A stretch of 24,000 nt of DNA from an uncultured beta proteobacterium (lineage in GTDB: Bacteria > Pseudomonadota > Gammaproteobacteria > Burkholderiales > JAEUMW01): contig CAVVES010000026.1 of assembly GCA_963747225.1 (NCBI GenBank), forward strand, positions 72,449 to 96,448. Direction: 5' to 3'. Of this stretch, positions 786 through 6,863 are shown in pieces. A model generated the notes under the pieces. The model made no database searches, was not told the DNA's origin, and saw only the letters and a program-made list of their open reading frames with translations. Position 1 is the first letter of the stretch. Every line of letters starts with the position of its first letter. A program made the position numbers and the translations under genes.

Positions 786-2012
786 CTACTTCCGGTTCCC
801 CGCAATTGCCTCGATGCGCATCCGCAGCGCGTTCAGGCGGATGAAGCCCCCCGCGTCGGCCTGGTTGTATGCGCCCTTGTCATCCTCGAATGTGGCGATG
901 GTCGGGTCGAACAGTGAATCGCTCTTCGAGTCGCGTCCCACCACGCTGACGCCGCCCTTGTAGAGCTTCAGCCGCACCCACCCGTTGACGTGCTGCTGCG
1001 TGTGATCGATGAGCACCTGCAGCGCTTTCCGCTCCGGGCTCCACCAGTAGCCGTTGTAGATCAGGCTCGCGTAGCGGGGCATGAGGTCATCCTTCAGGTG
1101 CGCGACTTCGCGGTCGAGGCAAACGGATTCGATGCCGCGATGGGCTTTGAGCATGATCGTGCCGCCGGGCGTTTCGTAGCAGCCGCGCGACTTCATCCCG
1201 ACGTAGCGGTTTTCCACAAGGTCGAGACGGCCGATGCCGTGCTCGCCGCCGAGGCGATTCAATTCGGTCAGGACGGTGGCCGGTGTCATGCGCGTTCCAT
1301 TCAGCGCAACGATGTCGCCTTTTTCGTATTCGACGTCGAGATACTCCGGGACGTCGGGCGCCTGTTCGGGCGATACCGTCCAGCGCCACATGGATTCCTC
1401 GGCTTCGGCTGCCGGGTCTTCCAGATGACGCCCCTCGAAGCTGATGTGCAGCAGGTTCGCATCCATGGAATACGGCGATCCGCCAGCCTTGTGTTTCATC
1501 TCGATGGGAATGCCGTGCTGCTCGGCATAAGCGAGCAGCTTCTCGCGCGAGAGCAGGTCCCACTCGCGCCACGGAGCGATCACCCTGATGTTGGGCTCGA
1601 GCGCGTAGTAGCCGAGCTCGAAGCGGACCTGATCGTTGCCTTTGCCCGTTGCGCCGTGAGCCACCGCATCGGCGTCGGTCTCGCGTGCGATCTCGATCTG
1701 GCGCTTCGCAATCAGCGGACGCGCGATGGAAGTGCCGAGCAGGTATTCGCCTTCGTAGATCGCGTTTGCCCGGAACATCGGGAACACGAAGTCGCGCACG
1801 AACTCCTCGCGCACGTCGTCGATGAAGATATGCTCCGGCTTGATGCCGAACTGCAGCGCCTTTTTGCGCGCGGGCTCGAGCTCTTCACCCTGGCCGAGAT
1901 CGGCGGTGAAGGTCACCACCTCGCACCGGTAGGTATCCTGCAGCCACTTGAGGATGACCGAGGTGTCGAGTCCGCCGGAATAGGCGAGGACGGCTTTCTT
2001 GATCTGAGACAT
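786..2012 (-). CDS. argG: argininosuccinate synthase (type I, 408 aa)
   Basis: N-terminal ATP-PPase motif AYSGGLDTS and full-length similarity to ArgG. The ORF-track start at 2054 is a TTG; the internal ATG at 2012 ([18 protein letters not shown]) gives the canonical N-terminus. Confidence 0.95.
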
Positions 2013-2082
2013 GTCTGCTCTTCGGAGTTGAGATAAGGGAACAACGGCCGACAAGGACGCGAGGCGCCGGCGTTACTTCGTG

Positions 2083-2337
2083 TCAGCGCGACCGAGGCGG
2101 GGAGTGCCTTCTCTGTATGTGGACGAGGCGGGAGCCGGCTGCTGCGCTTAACCTGCCCGCCCACGCTTGGTTAGGTTCGCCTGCGCCCAATCCCTCATTT
2201 CGGATCCAACGGCCGAGCACCAGATACTCCAGTAGCACCTTCTGCGTGTGAAATCGATTTTGGCTCCGGCCGCTACGCTTAACGTTCGCGAAGCTCACGT
2301 GAGCCTGCGCCGAAAGCGCCCGCACGTTGTCGTTCAT
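2083..2337 (-). CDS. mini-ORF 2 (84 aa) containing a diverged copy of the OTCase C-terminal peptide (HTQKVLLEYLVLGR)
   Basis: Its ATG (2335-2337) overlaps the TGA of mini-ORF 1 in an ATGA. AGAGG lies 5 nt upstream. Whether it is translated is unknown. Confidence 0.3.
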   Translation of the reverse strand: MNDNVRALSAQAHVSFANVKRSGRSQNRFHTQKVLLEYLVLGRWIRNEGLGAGEPNQAWAGRLSAAAGSRLVHIQRRHSPPRSR

Positions 2338-2560
2338 GGTGCCTCTACCCGACCGAGCACGAGATACTCCAATAGTGCCTTTTGGGTGTGCAGGCAATTT
2401 TGGCTCCGGCCGCTGCGCTTAACTTGGTCGCGCCTGCAGTCGACCAAGTTAGCCTGCATCCAAACCGACTCCACCCGAGCCCTGGTCATGCTTCCACTCG
2501 TCCTAACACCAGAAACTCCAGCAGCGCCTTTTGCGTGTGGAGGCGGTTTTCCGCTTCGTC
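2131..2560 (-). repeat. tandem array of about 131-140 bp units derived from the argF 3' end plus spacer (argF tail, two good copies, one degenerate partial copy)
   Basis: GTTAAGCG(C/T)AGC(G/A)GCCGG motif at 2401-2423, 2261-2283 and 2131-2152 (plus-strand coordinates of its reverse complement). CACAC(G/C)CA(A/G)AAGG..CT..TGGAGT(A/T)TCT.GTG block at about 2495-2545, 2352-2395 and 2212-2255. GCAGGC(T/G).AC recurs in each spacer. Confidence 0.85.
2334..2489 (-). CDS. mini-ORF 1 (51 aa) ending in a near-exact copy of the OTCase C-terminus (HTQKALLEYLVLGRVEAP)
   Basis: Its ATG (2487-2489) overlaps the argF TGA (2486-2488) in an ATGA. Whether it is translated is unknown. Confidence 0.3.
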   Translation of the reverse strand: MTRARVESVWMQANLVDCRRDQVKRSGRSQNCLHTQKALLEYLVLGRVEAP

Positions 2561-3409
2561 CCACACCACGCTCTGTGGACCGTCGATCACTTCTGCAGCG
2601 ACTTCCTCGCCGCGATGCGCTGGCAGACAATGCATGAAGAGCGCATTCGGGCTGGCGAGGTGCATCATCTCGGCATCGACGCGCCAGTGCTCGAAGTCGC
2701 GGCGCCGCTCCTCGTTCTGGGCTTCGAAGCCCATGCTGGTCCACACATCGGTCGTGACGAGGTCCGCCCCTCGGGCGGCATCGTGGGGATCGTCGAATTC
2801 CTCGTAGTGACCGTCGCCATAGAGTCCCGCCCGCTCCGGCTCCACCGCGTAACCGGGAGGCGTGGAGACGTGCACGTTGAAGTCCAGGACTTCGGCTGCC
2901 TGCAGCCATGTGTTGCAGACGTTGTTCGAGTCTCCGATCCACGCGACAGTCCGGCCAGCGATCGGTCCGCGGTGATCGACGAAGGTAAAGATGTCCGCCA
3001 TGATCTGGCACGGATGATATTCGTTCGTGAGTCCGTTGATGACGGGTACGCGGGAGTGGCCCGCGAAGCGCTCGACGATCGCCTGCTCGAAGGTGCGGAT
3101 CATCACGACGTCGACCATGCGCGAGATAACCTGCGCTGCGTCTTCCACGGGCTCGCCGCGGCCAAGTTGCGTGTCACGGGTGTTGAGATAGACTGCCGCG
3201 CCGCCGAGCTGATGCATTCCCGCCTCGAACGACAGCCGGGTGCGCGTGGACTGCTTCTCGAAGATCATCGCCAGCGTGCGATCTTCAAGCGGCCAGTAGC
3301 GCTGGTAGGACTTGAAGCGCTCCCGGATCCAGCGCGTGCGATCGAACAGGTACTCGAACTCTTCGCGCGCGAGATCCTTGAACTGCAGAAAATGGCGGAT
3401 CGGACGCAT
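2486..3409 (-). CDS. argF: ornithine carbamoyltransferase (307 aa)
   Basis: Carbamoyl-phosphate motif STRTR (KQSTRTRLSFE), ornithine-binding HPCQ, and HCLP (FMHCLPAHRGEEV). Full-length OTCase architecture. Confidence 0.95.
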   Translation of the reverse strand: MRPIRHFLQFKDLAREEFEYLFDRTRWIRERFKSYQRYWPLEDRTLAMIFEKQSTRTRLSFEAGMHQLGGAAVYLNTRDTQLGRGEPVEDAAQVISRMVDVVMIRTFEQAIVERFAGHSRVPVINGLTNEYHPCQIMADIFTFVDHRGPIAGRTVAWIGDSNNVCNTWLQAAEVLDFNVHVSTPPGYAVEPERAGLYGDGHYEEFDDPHDAARGADLVTTDVWTSMGFEAQNEERRRDFEHWRVDAEMMHLASPNALFMHCLPAHRGEEVAAEVIDGPQSVVWDEAENRLHTQKALLEFLVLGRVEA

Positions 3410-3428
3410 CCCGGAAGCGCGCTGCCGC

Positions 3429-4625
3429 TCAATGCGCAGCGGCGACGGCGGCTGGCACCGCCAGAAAGTCGGCTACCAGCGGCACGAGAGTTTCGAGCAG
3501 TTGCAGCACTTCGGCCTCGGAGATGACGAGCGGCGGGACCAGGCGGATCACGGTGTCTGCGGTGACATTGATGAGCAAGCCGCGGCCCAGAGCGAGCTTC
3601 ACCAGTTCGCCGCAGGGACGGTCGAGCTCGATGCCGATCATGAGGCCCTGGCCGCGAATGTCTTTCACACCCTCCGTCCCCGCAAGTCTCTCGGCGACAC
3701 CGGTGCGGATCAGCTCTCCCATCCTGTTGGCGTTCGCCAGCAGCCCTTCGGTTTCAATGGTTTCGAGCGTGGCAAGGGACGCAGCGCACACGAGCGGGTT
3801 GCCGCCGAAGGTGGAGCCATGGGTGCCAGGCTTGAAGGTGCCTGCGGCGGGACCGGCAGCGAGACACGCGCCGATCGGCAACCCACCGCCGAGTCCCTTG
3901 GCGAGGGTGATCACGTCGGGACGGATGCCCGTGTGCTGGAAACCGAACCACTTTCCGGTGCGGCCGATGCCAGTCTGCACTTCGTCCAGCATCAACAGCC
4001 ACCCGTTGGCGTCGCAGATCGCACGCAGCCGGGGCAGATAGTCCGCGGCGGGTATGCGCACGCCGCCTTCGCCCTGGATGGGTTCCACCAGCACCGCCAC
4101 CACGTTCTTGTTGTGCGCCGCCACTTGCTCGACGGAGGCAACGTCGCCATAGGGGACACGCGCAAAACCGGTGAGCAGCGGCTCGAAACCCGCCTGCACC
4201 TTGCGCGAGCCGGTGGCCGTCAGCGTCGCCATGGTGCGGCCGTGGAAGCTGTGCTCCATGACGATGACGGTCGGCACCTCGATTTCCTTCCGATGGCCGA
4301 CCATGCGGGCGAGCTTGATCGCCGCCTCGTTTGCTTCGGCGCCCGAATTGCAGAAGAACGCCTCCTCCATGCCAGACAGGGTGCAAAGCTTTGCGGCGAG
4401 CTGTTCCTGGCGCTTGATGCGGTAGATGTTGGAGGTATGGATGAGCGTGGCCGCCTGCTCCGCAACCGCCTTCACGAGGCGCGGGTGCGCGTGGCCGAGC
4501 GCGCACACCGCAACGCCCGCGAGCGCGTCCAGATAGCGCTTGCCGGATTCGTCCCAGAGCCAGACGCCCTGACCGCGCTCGAAGGCGAGCGGCAGACGGG
4601 CGTAGTTGTTCATCAGATTCGCCAT
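3429..4625 (-). CDS. argD: acetylornithine aminotransferase, class III PLP aminotransferase (398 aa)
   Basis: N-terminus MNNYARLPLAFERGQGVWLWD and PLP-lysine region VITLAKGLGGGLPIGA. Sits 19 nt upstream of argF on the same strand. Confidence 0.92.
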   Translation of the reverse strand: MANLMNNYARLPLAFERGQGVWLWDESGKRYLDALAGVAVCALGHAHPRLVKAVAEQAATLIHTSNIYRIKRQEQLAAKLCTLSGMEEAFFCNSGAEANEAAIKLARMVGHRKEIEVPTVIVMEHSFHGRTMATLTATGSRKVQAGFEPLLTGFARVPYGDVASVEQVAAHNKNVVAVLVEPIQGEGGVRIPAADYLPRLRAICDANGWLLMLDEVQTGIGRTGKWFGFQHTGIRPDVITLAKGLGGGLPIGACLAAGPAAGTFKPGTHGSTFGGNPLVCAASLATLETIETEGLLANANRMGELIRTGVAERLAGTEGVKDIRGQGLMIGIELDRPCGELVKLALGRGLLINVTADTVIRLVPPLVISEAEVLQLLETLVPLVADFLAVPAAVAAAH

Positions 4626-4745: not shown

Positions 4746-6731
4746 TCAGTGGGAGAGGCGGTGCAGCGCCTCTTCCTCGCCCGCCTGTAGGACACGCACG
4801 CAGGGCAGGTAGCCCTCGTACAGGATGCCGTGCATCTCGATCTTCTTGGGCGATCGCAGTAGCCCCACGAGGTAATGGACAATCTCCGTGGTCAGCACCT
4901 GGCCGGGAACGAGCACCGGGATTCCCGGCGGATACGGCGTGATCTGATCCGCGGCGACGCGGCCTTCGAGCTTGAGGTTGGGCTGGTCGTTTTCGAGGAG
5001 CAGCGGGACCGGTTCGCCGGCGCAGTAGAACGCGTCGCGGGGCAGGAAGCGCAGCTCGGTGAAGCGCGGCAAGTACGGGGCGGGATACAGCCGCCGCGGC
5101 GCGCGGGCCTCGCGGGCGATGCGCATGAGCGCATCGTAGAGGCGCGAGACCTTGCTCCGGGTCGTGCCAATGGTCAGCAGCAGCGTGAGCGTGTTGAACG
5201 TGGACTTCTCCACCTGAATGTTGAAGCGCTCCAGGAGCTCTCCCTGCAACTCTTCTACGGTAAGGCCACAGGAGGAGATGTCGAGCGTGACCTTGGTCGG
5301 GTCGAGCAGGATGCCGTCGCCCGCGACTTCTTCCGGCAGCAGGTCTTCCAGCTCCAGCACCCGGAACATCCCTGTGGAATTGATCTGCTGGCGCAGCTCA
5401 CGCGCGAGGCCTAGGGTGCGCGCGAGGAGTTTGTAGCCTTCCATGACCGCCTGCTTCCGTCCCACGTCGAGGCTCGCGATGATCGCGTACTGCGGGCTCG
5501 TGGACGTATGCATGTTGAAATTCTCGCGGAAGATATGCTCGTTGAACGCCGGATCGTTCACGTGAATCATGCTCGCCTGCGAGAAGGCGGAAAGCACCTT
5601 GTGGGTCGACTGGGTTGCGTAGTCGGCGCCCGCCTCGAGCGCGGTCGGGCGAAACTCCGGGTGAAACCGCGCGAACGCGTACCAGGCTTCGTCCACCATG
5701 ACCTTGATCCCGTGCGCGTGTGCCGCCTCGACGATCGGCGCGAGGTCGTAGCGCAGGCCGTCGTAGGTGCAGGAGGTGAGCACGATCGCCTGCGCGTCCG
5801 GATGCTCCTCGAACGCGCGCAGGAGCGTCGCTTTCGGCACTGGCCCGTAGATGCCGTAGCGCCGGTTCACCGAGGAGTCGAGGTAGATCGGATGGGCGCC
5901 GGAGAGGATCACTCCGTGGTGGACCGACTTGTGGCAGTTGCGGTCGAGCAGCAGCTTCTCACCGGGAGCGATCAGGGTCTGCAGCATCACCTTGTTCGCT
6001 GTCGAGGTGCCGTTGGTGGCGAAAAATGTGCGGCGCGCGCCGAATGCCTTGGCCGCCATCTTCTGCGCCTCGAGGATGACGCCCCCCGGCTTCATCAGCG
6101 AATCGAGCATGGGCACCGAGACCGAAAGGTCTGCGTCGAACACGTGCTCCCCCATGAACTCGTAGAAGTCGCGCACCCACGGGCTGTCACGCAGGCTGTC
6201 GCCGCTTGAGTGGCCCGGCGAGTGCCACGCGTCCTTCGCCATGAAGACATAGCTCTTTAGCTGGTCGTAGAACGGCGTGCGTGCCTTTTCCTGAATCTGC
6301 GCATTGATGATGCGGTACCAGCCGCGGTAGTCGCGCTCCTCGCGGTAGAAGTACCCATCCACGGCCTCCGCGAGCAGGGCGTCGACCACTTCGTCCTCCG
6401 CCTCCTTCGCGATCAGGATGTACACGTCGAGCTCGGGCCGCAGCCGCGTGATCTTGCGCACGAGCGAGAGCGCGGTCATCTGCAGCGAGCGGCGCGAATT
6501 CTTGCCCTTGCCGTTCGCGAGACTGTACAGCGTATCGTCCACCAGCACCGCCTGCAGGTCGCCGTCGTCCTCGATCGCGCGCAGCGCCTCGCGCGCCGTG
6601 TCGACGCCGGTGAAGCTCACGCCGAGCGGGTTGTCGAGGCTCTTCGCGGCGGCATTGAGACCCTTGATGAGATCTTTCAGGACGAGCGCCTCGTCGTTGA
6701 TCACGAGGACGCGGCTGACCGGCTTGCGCAT
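4746..6731 (-). CDS. PLP-dependent Orn/Lys/Arg decarboxylase family protein (661 aa), with N-terminal receiver-like wing domain
   Basis: PLP-lysine motif ATQSTHKVLSAFSQASMIHV and wing domain VLVINDEALVLKDL...LVDD. Start placed at the internal ATG at 6731 (MRKPVSRVLVIND); the upstream 38 codons are Arg-rich and overlap the divergent nfeD leader. Substrate is not assignable from sequence. Confidence 0.88.
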   Translation of the reverse strand: MRKPVSRVLVINDEALVLKDLIKGLNAAAKSLDNPLGVSFTGVDTAREALRAIEDDGDLQAVLVDDTLYSLANGKGKNSRRSLQMTALSLVRKITRLRPELDVYILIAKEAEDEVVDALLAEAVDGYFYREERDYRGWYRIINAQIQEKARTPFYDQLKSYVFMAKDAWHSPGHSSGDSLRDSPWVRDFYEFMGEHVFDADLSVSVPMLDSLMKPGGVILEAQKMAAKAFGARRTFFATNGTSTANKVMLQTLIAPGEKLLLDRNCHKSVHHGVILSGAHPIYLDSSVNRRYGIYGPVPKATLLRAFEEHPDAQAIVLTSCTYDGLRYDLAPIVEAAHAHGIKVMVDEAWYAFARFHPEFRPTALEAGADYATQSTHKVLSAFSQASMIHVNDPAFNEHIFRENFNMHTSTSPQYAIIASLDVGRKQAVMEGYKLLARTLGLARELRQQINSTGMFRVLELEDLLPEEVAGDGILLDPTKVTLDISSCGLTVEELQGELLERFNIQVEKSTFNTLTLLLTIGTTRSKVSRLYDALMRIAREARAPRRLYPAPYLPRFTELRFLPRDAFYCAGEPVPLLLENDQPNLKLEGRVAADQITPYPPGIPVLVPGQVLTTEIVHYLVGLLRSPKKIEMHGILYEGYLPCVRVLQAGEEEALHRLSH

Positions 6732-6863
6732 GGAATGAGGCTGCGAAAAAAGGCGCTTTATGCGCCAATTCCGCCGCCGAGGCAACTTTCGCCGGGGACG
6801 GAATTTACGCCGCTGCCCGAGGTCCGACATTCGACCGCCGCGCAAACCCGGTATATTCCCGCT

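Follow-up and report, generated by a model that had tools for sequence, protein, structure and literature searches.

Stacked, protein-less insertion cassettes bringing replacement gene ends probably make up the argF-argG spacer of an uncultured betaproteobacterium

The window analyzed here is a 24,000-nt stretch of contig CAVVES010000026.1, from an uncultured beta proteobacterium, in which the arginine genes argD (3429-4625), argF (2486-3409) and argG (786-2012) all lie on the minus strand. The argF-argG spacer is 473 nt long and contains three direct repeats. We conclude, with a probability of about 0.82, that this spacer consists of three stacked small insertion cassettes without protein genes (131-149 nt here, typically ~130 nt), each of which brought a replacement end for argF and displaced the prior one. 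Each cassette begins with a duplicate of the host sequence on the right-hand side of its insertion site, which in the window is the last ~20 argF codons, followed by a short spacer, a guide of 10-14 nt complementing the cassette's own start and a module of ~60 nt. Insertion takes place precisely at G|A(A/C)AA, and the native gene end, pushed downstream of the module, would then decay. The gene would stay intact because its body reads into the cassette-borne end, and repeated insertion at one junction would result in stacked cassettes with the newest adjoining the gene body. The features of the locus are as follows.

2486-3409, minus strand: argF, ornithine carbamoyltransferase (OTCase), 307 aa; an open reading frame (ORF) with a 100% identical protein (P0001) and Pfam OTCace domains.
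Down to 2551, minus strand: native body of argF; the junction GCGG|AAAAC is at 2551|2550, and relatives show a discontinuity between body and tail at the same point.
2550-2486, minus strand: last 21 codons of argF and the stop, part of cassette 0.
2402-2550, minus strand: cassette 0, the newest, 149 nt; tail and stop at 2550-2486, spacer at 2485-2475, guide GTGGAGTCGGTTT at 2474-2462.
2461-2402, minus strand: two-hairpin module of cassette 0, with the terminal AGCC at 2405-2402.
2262-2401, minus strand: cassette 1, 140 nt; displaced tail QNCLHTQKALLEYLVLGRVEAP and stop at 2401-2334, guide GTGCGGGCGCTTT at 2325-2313, module at 2312-2262.
2131-2261, minus strand: cassette 2, 131 nt, decaying; displaced tail QNRFHTQKVLLEYLVLGR, out of frame past GR.
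2083-2130, minus strand: oldest displaced argF tail remnant, CGCCTCGTCCACATACAGAGAAGGCACTCC... with indels, found by alignment.
2013-2082, minus strand: native argG leader and ribosome-binding region, comparable in length to the 58 nt from argF stop to argG start at the empty site L226.
786-2012, minus strand: argG, argininosuccinate synthase, ATG at 2012-2010; Pfam Arginosuc_synth in relatives.

Repeat search placed the direct repeats in a 74-nt family with copies at 2210-2283, 2350-2423 and 2499-2572, spaced by 140 and 149 nt. Identity between units 1 and 2 is 84%, and that between the argF-tail copy and the reference copy (unit 2) is 61%. Tandem Repeats Finder detected no tandem array in the window because the copies are too diverged. 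An earlier, sequence-only reading of this DNA had reported repeats of the argF end in the spacer, and both the repeat search and alignment bore this out. Of its unit lengths (~131-140 bp) the two extremes agree with the measured 149, 140 and 131 nt, and the longest unit falls outside the range. What it took for a fourth trace of the tail at 2131-2152 actually belongs to the module of the third cassette, at the end that holds hairpin 2 (GTTAAGCGCAGCAGCCGGCTCC); the decayed tail is located at 2083-2130. It also overlooked that the most conserved part of each unit is a module unrelated to argF, and that the duplication is not specific to argF.

Cassette 0 is the newest unit and its tail is the current argF end; the further units carry successively older displaced tails, which pass from intact to frameshifted to carrying indels. 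Searches with nhmmer gave E=4e-31 for cassette 1 and E=3e-29 for cassette 2, whose module is degenerate (GGGCGCAGGCG...GTTAAGCGCAGCAGCCGGCTCC); a further hit to cassette 2 was weak (E=0.27). The remnant at 2083-2130 is probably the original native argF tail. It is the most decayed of all, which fits a tail that was displaced before the others.

In other genera, too, many tail copies are broken, and the conserved part is the module upstream of them. The module can be written as TTT-CGGCG-N-AGGCT, hairpin 1, (GTT)AAGC, hairpin 2 and GC-GGCCG-N-AGCC, with AAAAC and the tail copy directly 3′ of the AGCC in the argF modules. Hairpin 1 is variable in sequence yet self-complementary, and hairpin 2 takes the form GCCGC-GTA-GCGGC, GGCAC-GTAA-GTGCC or a short GCGNAGC, the last being an extraordinarily stable DNA mini-hairpin (PMC13037366). 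Analysis of a MAFFT alignment of 80 instances with RNAalifold identified GGC/GCC and GGCU/GGCC stems with a symmetric GNA/GNA loop between them, plus hairpin 1. When the guide and hairpin-2 pairs were added, 86.8% of cells were paired versus 77.7% in shuffles, and the covariation score was 0.207 versus 0.082 in shuffles, none of 500 reaching it; slid controls gave at most 0.054. The consensus fold is a three-way arrangement in which two independent hairpins lie inside the GGC/GCC and GGCU/GGCC stems. There is one invariant T.G pair, and in hairpin 1 G.T pairs outnumber A.C pairs 19 to 9. The folded strand is probably the one written here, as these pairs weakly indicate. Rfam 15 returned nothing better than E=0.77 (15 bits) for window positions 1900-2700 or E=9.9 for L206, ARAGORN detected neither a tRNA nor a tmRNA in the searched region of the window, a scan of the window for promoters and terminators found none, and a plasmid search returned no match.

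Directly 5′ of CGGCG, 10-14 nt repeat the start of the cassette in reverse-complement form, as illustrated by L206 (GCGGGCTTTGTTT against AAACAAAGCCCGC). In cassette 0 GTGGAGTCGGTTT pairs with AAACCGCCTCCAC at 12 of 13 positions when read by eye, and in the predicted single-strand fold of this cassette 2549-2537 are paired with 2474-2462. By hand count the match between guide and own 5′ end falls to 10 of 14 in cassette 1 and ~5 of 11 in cassette 2. Covariation links the base that precedes CGGCG to the second base 3′ of AGCC (T:A in 63 and G:C in 41 instances among the matches listed). Complementarity of the guide, counted per 14 positions, averaged 9.3 for the cassette-borne start, 7.8 for the native start and 5.0 for unrelated starts (Wilcoxon p=1.5e-5). 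Among the matches listed, 44 of 120 instances had at least 10 of 12 positions complementary to an upstream site, and shuffled guides gave none. A G precedes 39 of these 44 sites, 35 of them start with AAAA or ACAA, and their median distance to the module is 75 nt.

Guide helix and GGC/GCC stem lie on one continuous strand, with the cassette 3′ end (..AGCC) juxtaposed with its own 5′ end or with the downstream flank, and in the predicted fold the cut site is opposite an unpaired C. This geometry is the basis for the mechanism that we propose. In a single-stranded form the guide and the adjacent GGC/GCC stem would act as a splint, lining up the cassette 3′ end with its own 5′ end or with the target (A(A/C)AAC..), and some enzyme acting in trans would cut and join at the splinted site.

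The insertion and its boundaries can be read directly from a phage portal gene. L082 carries an empty portal gene, and alignment with the closely related phage L104 revealed a precise block of 133 nt in the latter, between GCCGCGG and ACAACCG. In L104 the module is located in the 3′ end of the gene with portal tail copies on both sides. As far as the junction the left flank is almost identical to L082. Of the two copies, the downstream one hardly differs from the empty allele; the diverged one is upstream and in frame. The two copies differ by 10 synonymous and 2 replacement changes by hand count, and by 9 and 5 in an automated count over a slightly longer stretch. This comparison demonstrates that the mobile block comprises a replacement gene end, spacer and module, and that the native end is displaced.

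The same is seen at argF. ArgF homologues 87-91% identical to that of the window have nearly identical bodies and different tails: at the nucleotide level bodies are 90-94% identical (third positions 76-84%) and tails 67-68% (third positions 25-35%), with the breakpoint exactly at G|AAAAC. Between the window and L227 the tails are closer than the bodies. L226 is empty, with 58 nt from argF stop to argG start and no cassette; L227 has a single cassette and retains only 22 nt of the native tail; L230, L231 and L232, from three independent assemblies, have one each; and the window has three. Cassette 0 of the window, L227 and L230 have spacer, guide and tail type in common, followed by three different downstream sequences. 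More widely, the argF-argG gap ranged from 2 nt to >1 kb across 80 betaproteobacterial argF loci, and the module was found downstream of argF in 7 of 81 such loci and was absent from 74. Module units 3′ of argF are present in L025 (Gallionella), L070 (Dechloromonas, a complete genome), L004, L003 and L020. That the array in the window could be an assembly artefact, a doubt raised in the sequence-only reading, was judged unlikely because its units differ by 16-39% and independent assemblies show the same architecture.

Several further observations were made at argF loci. No cassette is present in L228, where a cytochrome c′-like gene separates argF and argG. This gene (weak, faint hits to PF01322) occupies 3421-3990 in L227, 3424-3684 in L228 and 3712-4023 in L229; its start overlaps the argF stop as ATGA, and neither the window nor L226 or L230 has it. 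In L227 the stump of the displaced tail became fused to this gene when the cassette inserted, and the gene caller gives a 189-aa product. The contig of L020 ends inside a near-identical second copy of tail and spacer (4910-5085), which indicates that a unit was recently duplicated in place and that the assembly broke at the array. Displaced argF tails of the unrelated genomes L172 (~262-276) and the window (2401-2388) share identical first 14 nt, AAAATTGCCTGCAC, encoding NCLH instead of NRLH, and differ in the remainder; this identity may be a coincidence or a junction-associated change. Upstream of argD the window carries an Orn/Lys/Arg decarboxylase-family gene (4746-6845, minus strand; PF01276 in syntenic relatives), and the order decarboxylase-argD-argF-argG is kept across the window's clade.

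The cassettes are not confined to argF. Metagenome and prophage sets were gathered by a pattern built from the module alone, and the module was present in at least 120 contigs from metagenomes and ~10 from prophages, the latter having a lambda-like head module. Among the matches listed, a second copy of the stretch immediately following AGCC lay upstream of the module in 43 of 137 instances with enough flank; in these 43 the duplicated host segment was 23-110 nt long (median 49). The duplicated targets include the trpE tail (9 synonymous and no replacement differences), the sucD tail, further argF tails and the phage portal gene. At the 5′ end of ruvC the module is antisense and the cassette provides a new start codon and N-terminus. 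Genes which we take to encode SmpB, ProB, GAPDH and Dps, recognized from N-terminal sequences only, end just before cassettes.

Some members of the family have settings of their own. In three lambda-like prophage contigs (L082 4621-4688, L091 2452-2506 and L087 3130-3184) an antisense module is located between the genes for a gpD-like decoration and a gpE-like capsid protein, and another intergenic site carries the module as well. In related Ralstonia phages these two genes are only 8 nt apart, and their "empty" intergenic region is too diverged for the left end of the cassette to be placed. In L159 (~3240-3710, minus strand) two tandem module units of ~157 nt lie antisense beside a tRNA gene, each flanked by copies of the tRNA 3′ end and T-arm-like sequence (TGGCGGAGAGAGCGGGA ... 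AATCGAACCCGCGG); here a T-loop-like site seems to have received the module. Another variant, in which AACACCGCGCAACG follows the module, exists in multiple copies, many of them less than 100 nt from a contig end (L154, L178, L195, L201, L224 at both ends, L198, L126 and others), suggesting that the repeats break assemblies there; in six loci with this variant the same 979-aa membrane protein is encoded 319 nt downstream. L194 has three tandem modules ~70 nt apart at 28-236 with no gene-end copies between them, a different type of array.

The two copies of a gene end differ mainly at synonymous positions. For the argF tail and copy 1 the sequence-only reading had counted 12 synonymous and 2 replacement differences; the former number stands and the latter is 3 over 21 codons, a change from E to Q at the junction having been overlooked. 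When the 16 base differences were randomized a mean of 9.9 replacement codons was obtained, and three or fewer did not occur in 20,000 simulations (p<5e-5). For units 1 and 2 its count of 7 synonymous and 3 replacement differences in 25 codons became 6 and 4 in 19, with p=0.00015. The pooled co-oriented cases gave 96 synonymous versus 21 replacement codon differences, in gene frames picked by third-position G+C, a few of which are wrong (e.g. those of L209 and the window). The bias is significant, and neutral decay would not yield 12:3 or 96:21, in line with the earlier suggestion that it is unlike a decaying non-coding duplicate. The cassette explanation accounts for it, the displaced tail having worked until its displacement and the incoming tail having evolved under purifying selection in another genome. 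The copies as stumps of diverged argF alleles, one of two possibilities put forward earlier, are supported, and can now be tied to small insertion cassettes carrying replacement gene ends.

A number of points weigh against the cassette explanation. A few of the gene frames behind the pooled codon count are wrong, and sampling the metagenomes by pattern means that the variability of the module is underestimated. Only about one third of the instances among the matches listed have a detectable duplication or guide match; the others may be old, lie in non-coding DNA or work differently. Clustering of neighbour proteins revealed no recombinase or transposase recurring within 4 kb of the modules, the clusters consisting only of phage head genes, arg genes and assorted housekeeping genes; likewise, no candidate Y1 HUH transposase (TnpA/RAYT) recurs in the 4-10 kb around each copy. 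Neither a circle junction nor any other excised form was seen. The folding strand is indicated only weakly, and the folded molecule may be single-stranded DNA or RNA. Finally, the explanation gives no account of how a cassette first gains a matching gene end.

A variant of the cassette explanation, RNA-guided homing, would have the module serve as a guide-RNA scaffold at the right end of the cassette and the adjacent or complementary segment direct a nuclease or recombinase, in the manner of TnpB or IS110, the diverged gene end providing both rescue and immunity. The guide-like segment with its compensatory changes, the strand-specific folding with GNA and GNRA loops, and the presence of a recoded copy beside the native one, which resembles cleave-and-rescue logic, are all compatible with this. 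We nevertheless consider it unlikely. GCGNAGC is a classic DNA mini-hairpin (PMC13037366), the orientation relative to transcription is not fixed, and between phage late genes the module is antisense. There is no promoter-like site in the window, no match in Rfam, and no TnpB, IscB or IS110 gene recurring nearby in the sampled loci.

It is considerably less probable that the units are att-site scars (attL/attR, resembling cis-mobilizable elements, CIMEs) of large prophages or integrative elements that had entered the argF 3′ end and lost their interiors by deletion. Integrative elements targeting gene 3′ ends are known to carry a replacement end and to accrete in tandem, the module does occur in prophage contigs, and one array lies beside a tRNA gene. 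However, no filled site in the sampled loci exceeds the ~130-nt block or an array of it, the size distribution is tight (median 75 nt from 5′ end to module), and no integrase recurs within 4 kb; the phage modules lie in the head-gene cluster, not beside an integrase. An internal guide and covarying hairpins are also foreign to classical attP arms.

The other possibility put forward in the sequence-only reading was that the copies are translated and constrained. The two mini-ORFs it described are present, as are both of its ATGA overlaps (2486-2489 and 2334-2337): one of 51 aa running from 2489 to 2337 with a stop at 2334-2336, the other of 84 aa with ATG at 2337 and a stop at 2083-2085, both on the minus strand. 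These would be translated by ATGA coupling and the OTCase-tail peptides selected, for example as mimics of the C-terminal helix. In favour of this are the intact 51-aa ORF with its 12:3 ratio to the argF tail, and intact ORFs whose start codons adjoin or overlap the stop of argF in L025 (TAAATG) and L070 (GTGA). The 51-aa ORF is made up of the spacer and module of cassette 0 plus the displaced tail of cassette 1. The 51-aa ORF may be translated, but translation is superfluous for explaining the bias, because the same bias is found where no mini-ORF runs through the displaced copy: in unrelated genes with a different phase relative to the module or stops inside it (sucD of L209), and at an antisense gene 5′ end. 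In L003, L004, L020, L137, L227, L230 and units 2 and 3 of the window the displaced argF tail is broken by truncation or frameshift, and it is the module, not the peptide, that is conserved across genomes. Selected peptides are accordingly a very improbable explanation.

In-situ tandem duplication of the argF 3′ end and spacer by slippage or unequal crossing-over, followed by decay, is hardly tenable: although array copy number varies and the near-identical second unit of L020 means that local duplication can occur, it leaves unexplained a non-argF module common to other genera, phages and genes, does not account for guide complementarity or for codon ratios beyond the reach of neutral decay, is at odds with the empty and filled sites, where the in-frame copy is the foreign one, and is already contradicted by the 74 of 81 loci that lack the module as argF-argG spacer sequence.

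A number of other candidates were rejected. A long target-site duplication diverging in place predicts ~0.7:1 synonymous to replacement differences, against the 96:21 observed, and an in-frame copy equal to the empty allele, contrary to the alignment of L082 and L104. Campbell-type homologous integration would need more than the 75% identity seen over 60 nt, and it does not fit the sharp junctions. The differences are not adenine-specific, as they would be for a diversity-generating retroelement. An arginine attenuator leader peptide, tmRNA-like tagging, programmed ribosomal bypassing and Xer/dif elements were considered and rejected.

Under the cassette explanation a local oddity becomes a testable family, with cassettes numbering in the hundreds. 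They invade essential, conserved genes (argF, trpE, sucD, smpB, ruvC) and phage structural genes without inactivating them, so that close strains can differ in the C-termini of otherwise identical proteins and operon spacers can vary by multiples of ~140 nt. Contigs of metagenome-assembled genomes can break at cassette arrays, and gene callers emit spurious small or fused ORFs such as the 189-aa "gene" in L227. The arrays would be a natural record of successive gene-end replacements, datable by the decay gradient. If the guide truly sets the target, the cassette would be a compact reprogrammable device for DNA insertion, and its enzyme worth finding.

The part of the literature covered in our search contained no description of the cassette family and returned papers on DNA mini-hairpins, IS200/IS605 and repetitive extragenic palindromes (REPs). 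Miniature inverted-repeat transposable elements (Correia, RPE) have inverted repeats at both termini and a short target-site duplication of fixed length; in the cassettes the sequence complementary to the 5′ end lies internally, with the ~60-nt module after it, and the duplicated segment is 23-110 nt long and diverged. Like homing elements (group I and II introns, free-standing homing endonuclease genes), the cassettes repeatedly invade the same conserved site in orthologues of different species; as with group II introns the target would be recognized by base pairing, and as in synthetic "cleave and rescue" drives a recoded sequence preserves gene function. Unlike homing elements they show no splicing, ORF or Rfam ribozyme signature, and the gene is repaired by duplication and replacement.

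With integron attC sites the cassettes share a folded site of variable sequence that closes the mobile unit on its 3′ side and immediately precedes the crossover, and with integron arrays repeated insertion at a single junction with the newest unit proximal. The flanks of hairpin 1, GCTAAC...GTTAAGC, resemble R″ and R′ boxes (RYYYAAC, GTTRRRY), with one bulged A. Unlike attC there are two separate hairpins instead of one bipartite R/L hairpin; the junction is G|AMAA, not G|TT, and lies inside housekeeping genes with no attI/intI platform. The "cargo" is a gene end, not a gene, and the targets are scattered housekeeping genes.

Integrative elements and CIMEs likewise bring an element-borne end that restores the gene, leave the native end on the far side and form tandem stacks. 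Direct repeats of the target end flank the cassette with the in-frame copy element-borne, in the portal gene as in argF, and here too most differences between the copies are synonymous, each copy having evolved as a working gene end. Differences are that the whole cassette is ~130 nt long without an integrase, occurs in either orientation, may also replace a gene 5′ end, and has a structured module and guide; no full integrase-bearing element was found at the same site within 4 kb in the sampled loci.

Palindrome-associated transposable elements (PATEs), the non-autonomous derivatives of the IS200/IS605 family, and REP/RAYT elements depend on HUH Y1 transposases and single-strand "peel and paste"; they are small and protein-less, with bulged hairpins conserved in shape, not sequence, and their site is recognized by a guide at the foot of a hairpin (PMC8266576, PMC10055086). 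The cassettes resemble them in being small and protein-less, in their bulged hairpins of conserved shape, in precise insertion beside a short specific sequence with no classical target duplication, in having the last hairpin 10 nt from the element end, and in recognition of the site by pairing with a guide adjoining a hairpin, which the covarying base, the excess of complementarity over unrelated starts and the matched upstream sites described above bear out. They differ in that both hairpins are at the 3′ end with none at the left, the 5′ end being coding-like, in carrying a replacement for the adjacent host sequence, and in that no TnpA, TnpB or RAYT gene was seen in the 4-10 kb around copies. 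The guide of 10-14 nt is much longer than the 4 nt of IS608 and, in the folded strand, pairs with the cassette's own 5′ end and the sequence 3′ of the cut, unlike that of IS200/IS605. Overall, the agent works like a miniature single-strand or integron-style site-specific element but departs from the defining traits of IS200/IS605-PATE/REP elements, integron cassettes, CIME-type scars and miniature inverted-repeat elements; it looks like an undescribed variant with an unusually long internal guide and built-in gene-end replacement. We suggest tentatively, at somewhat less than even odds, that it represents a new class of guide-bearing, protein-less cassettes homing to conserved gene-end sites with a pre-adapted replacement, their targeting programmed by the 10-14 nt guide through the splint and an enzyme that cuts and joins single strands; such a class would be a natural analogue of "insert and rescue" designs.

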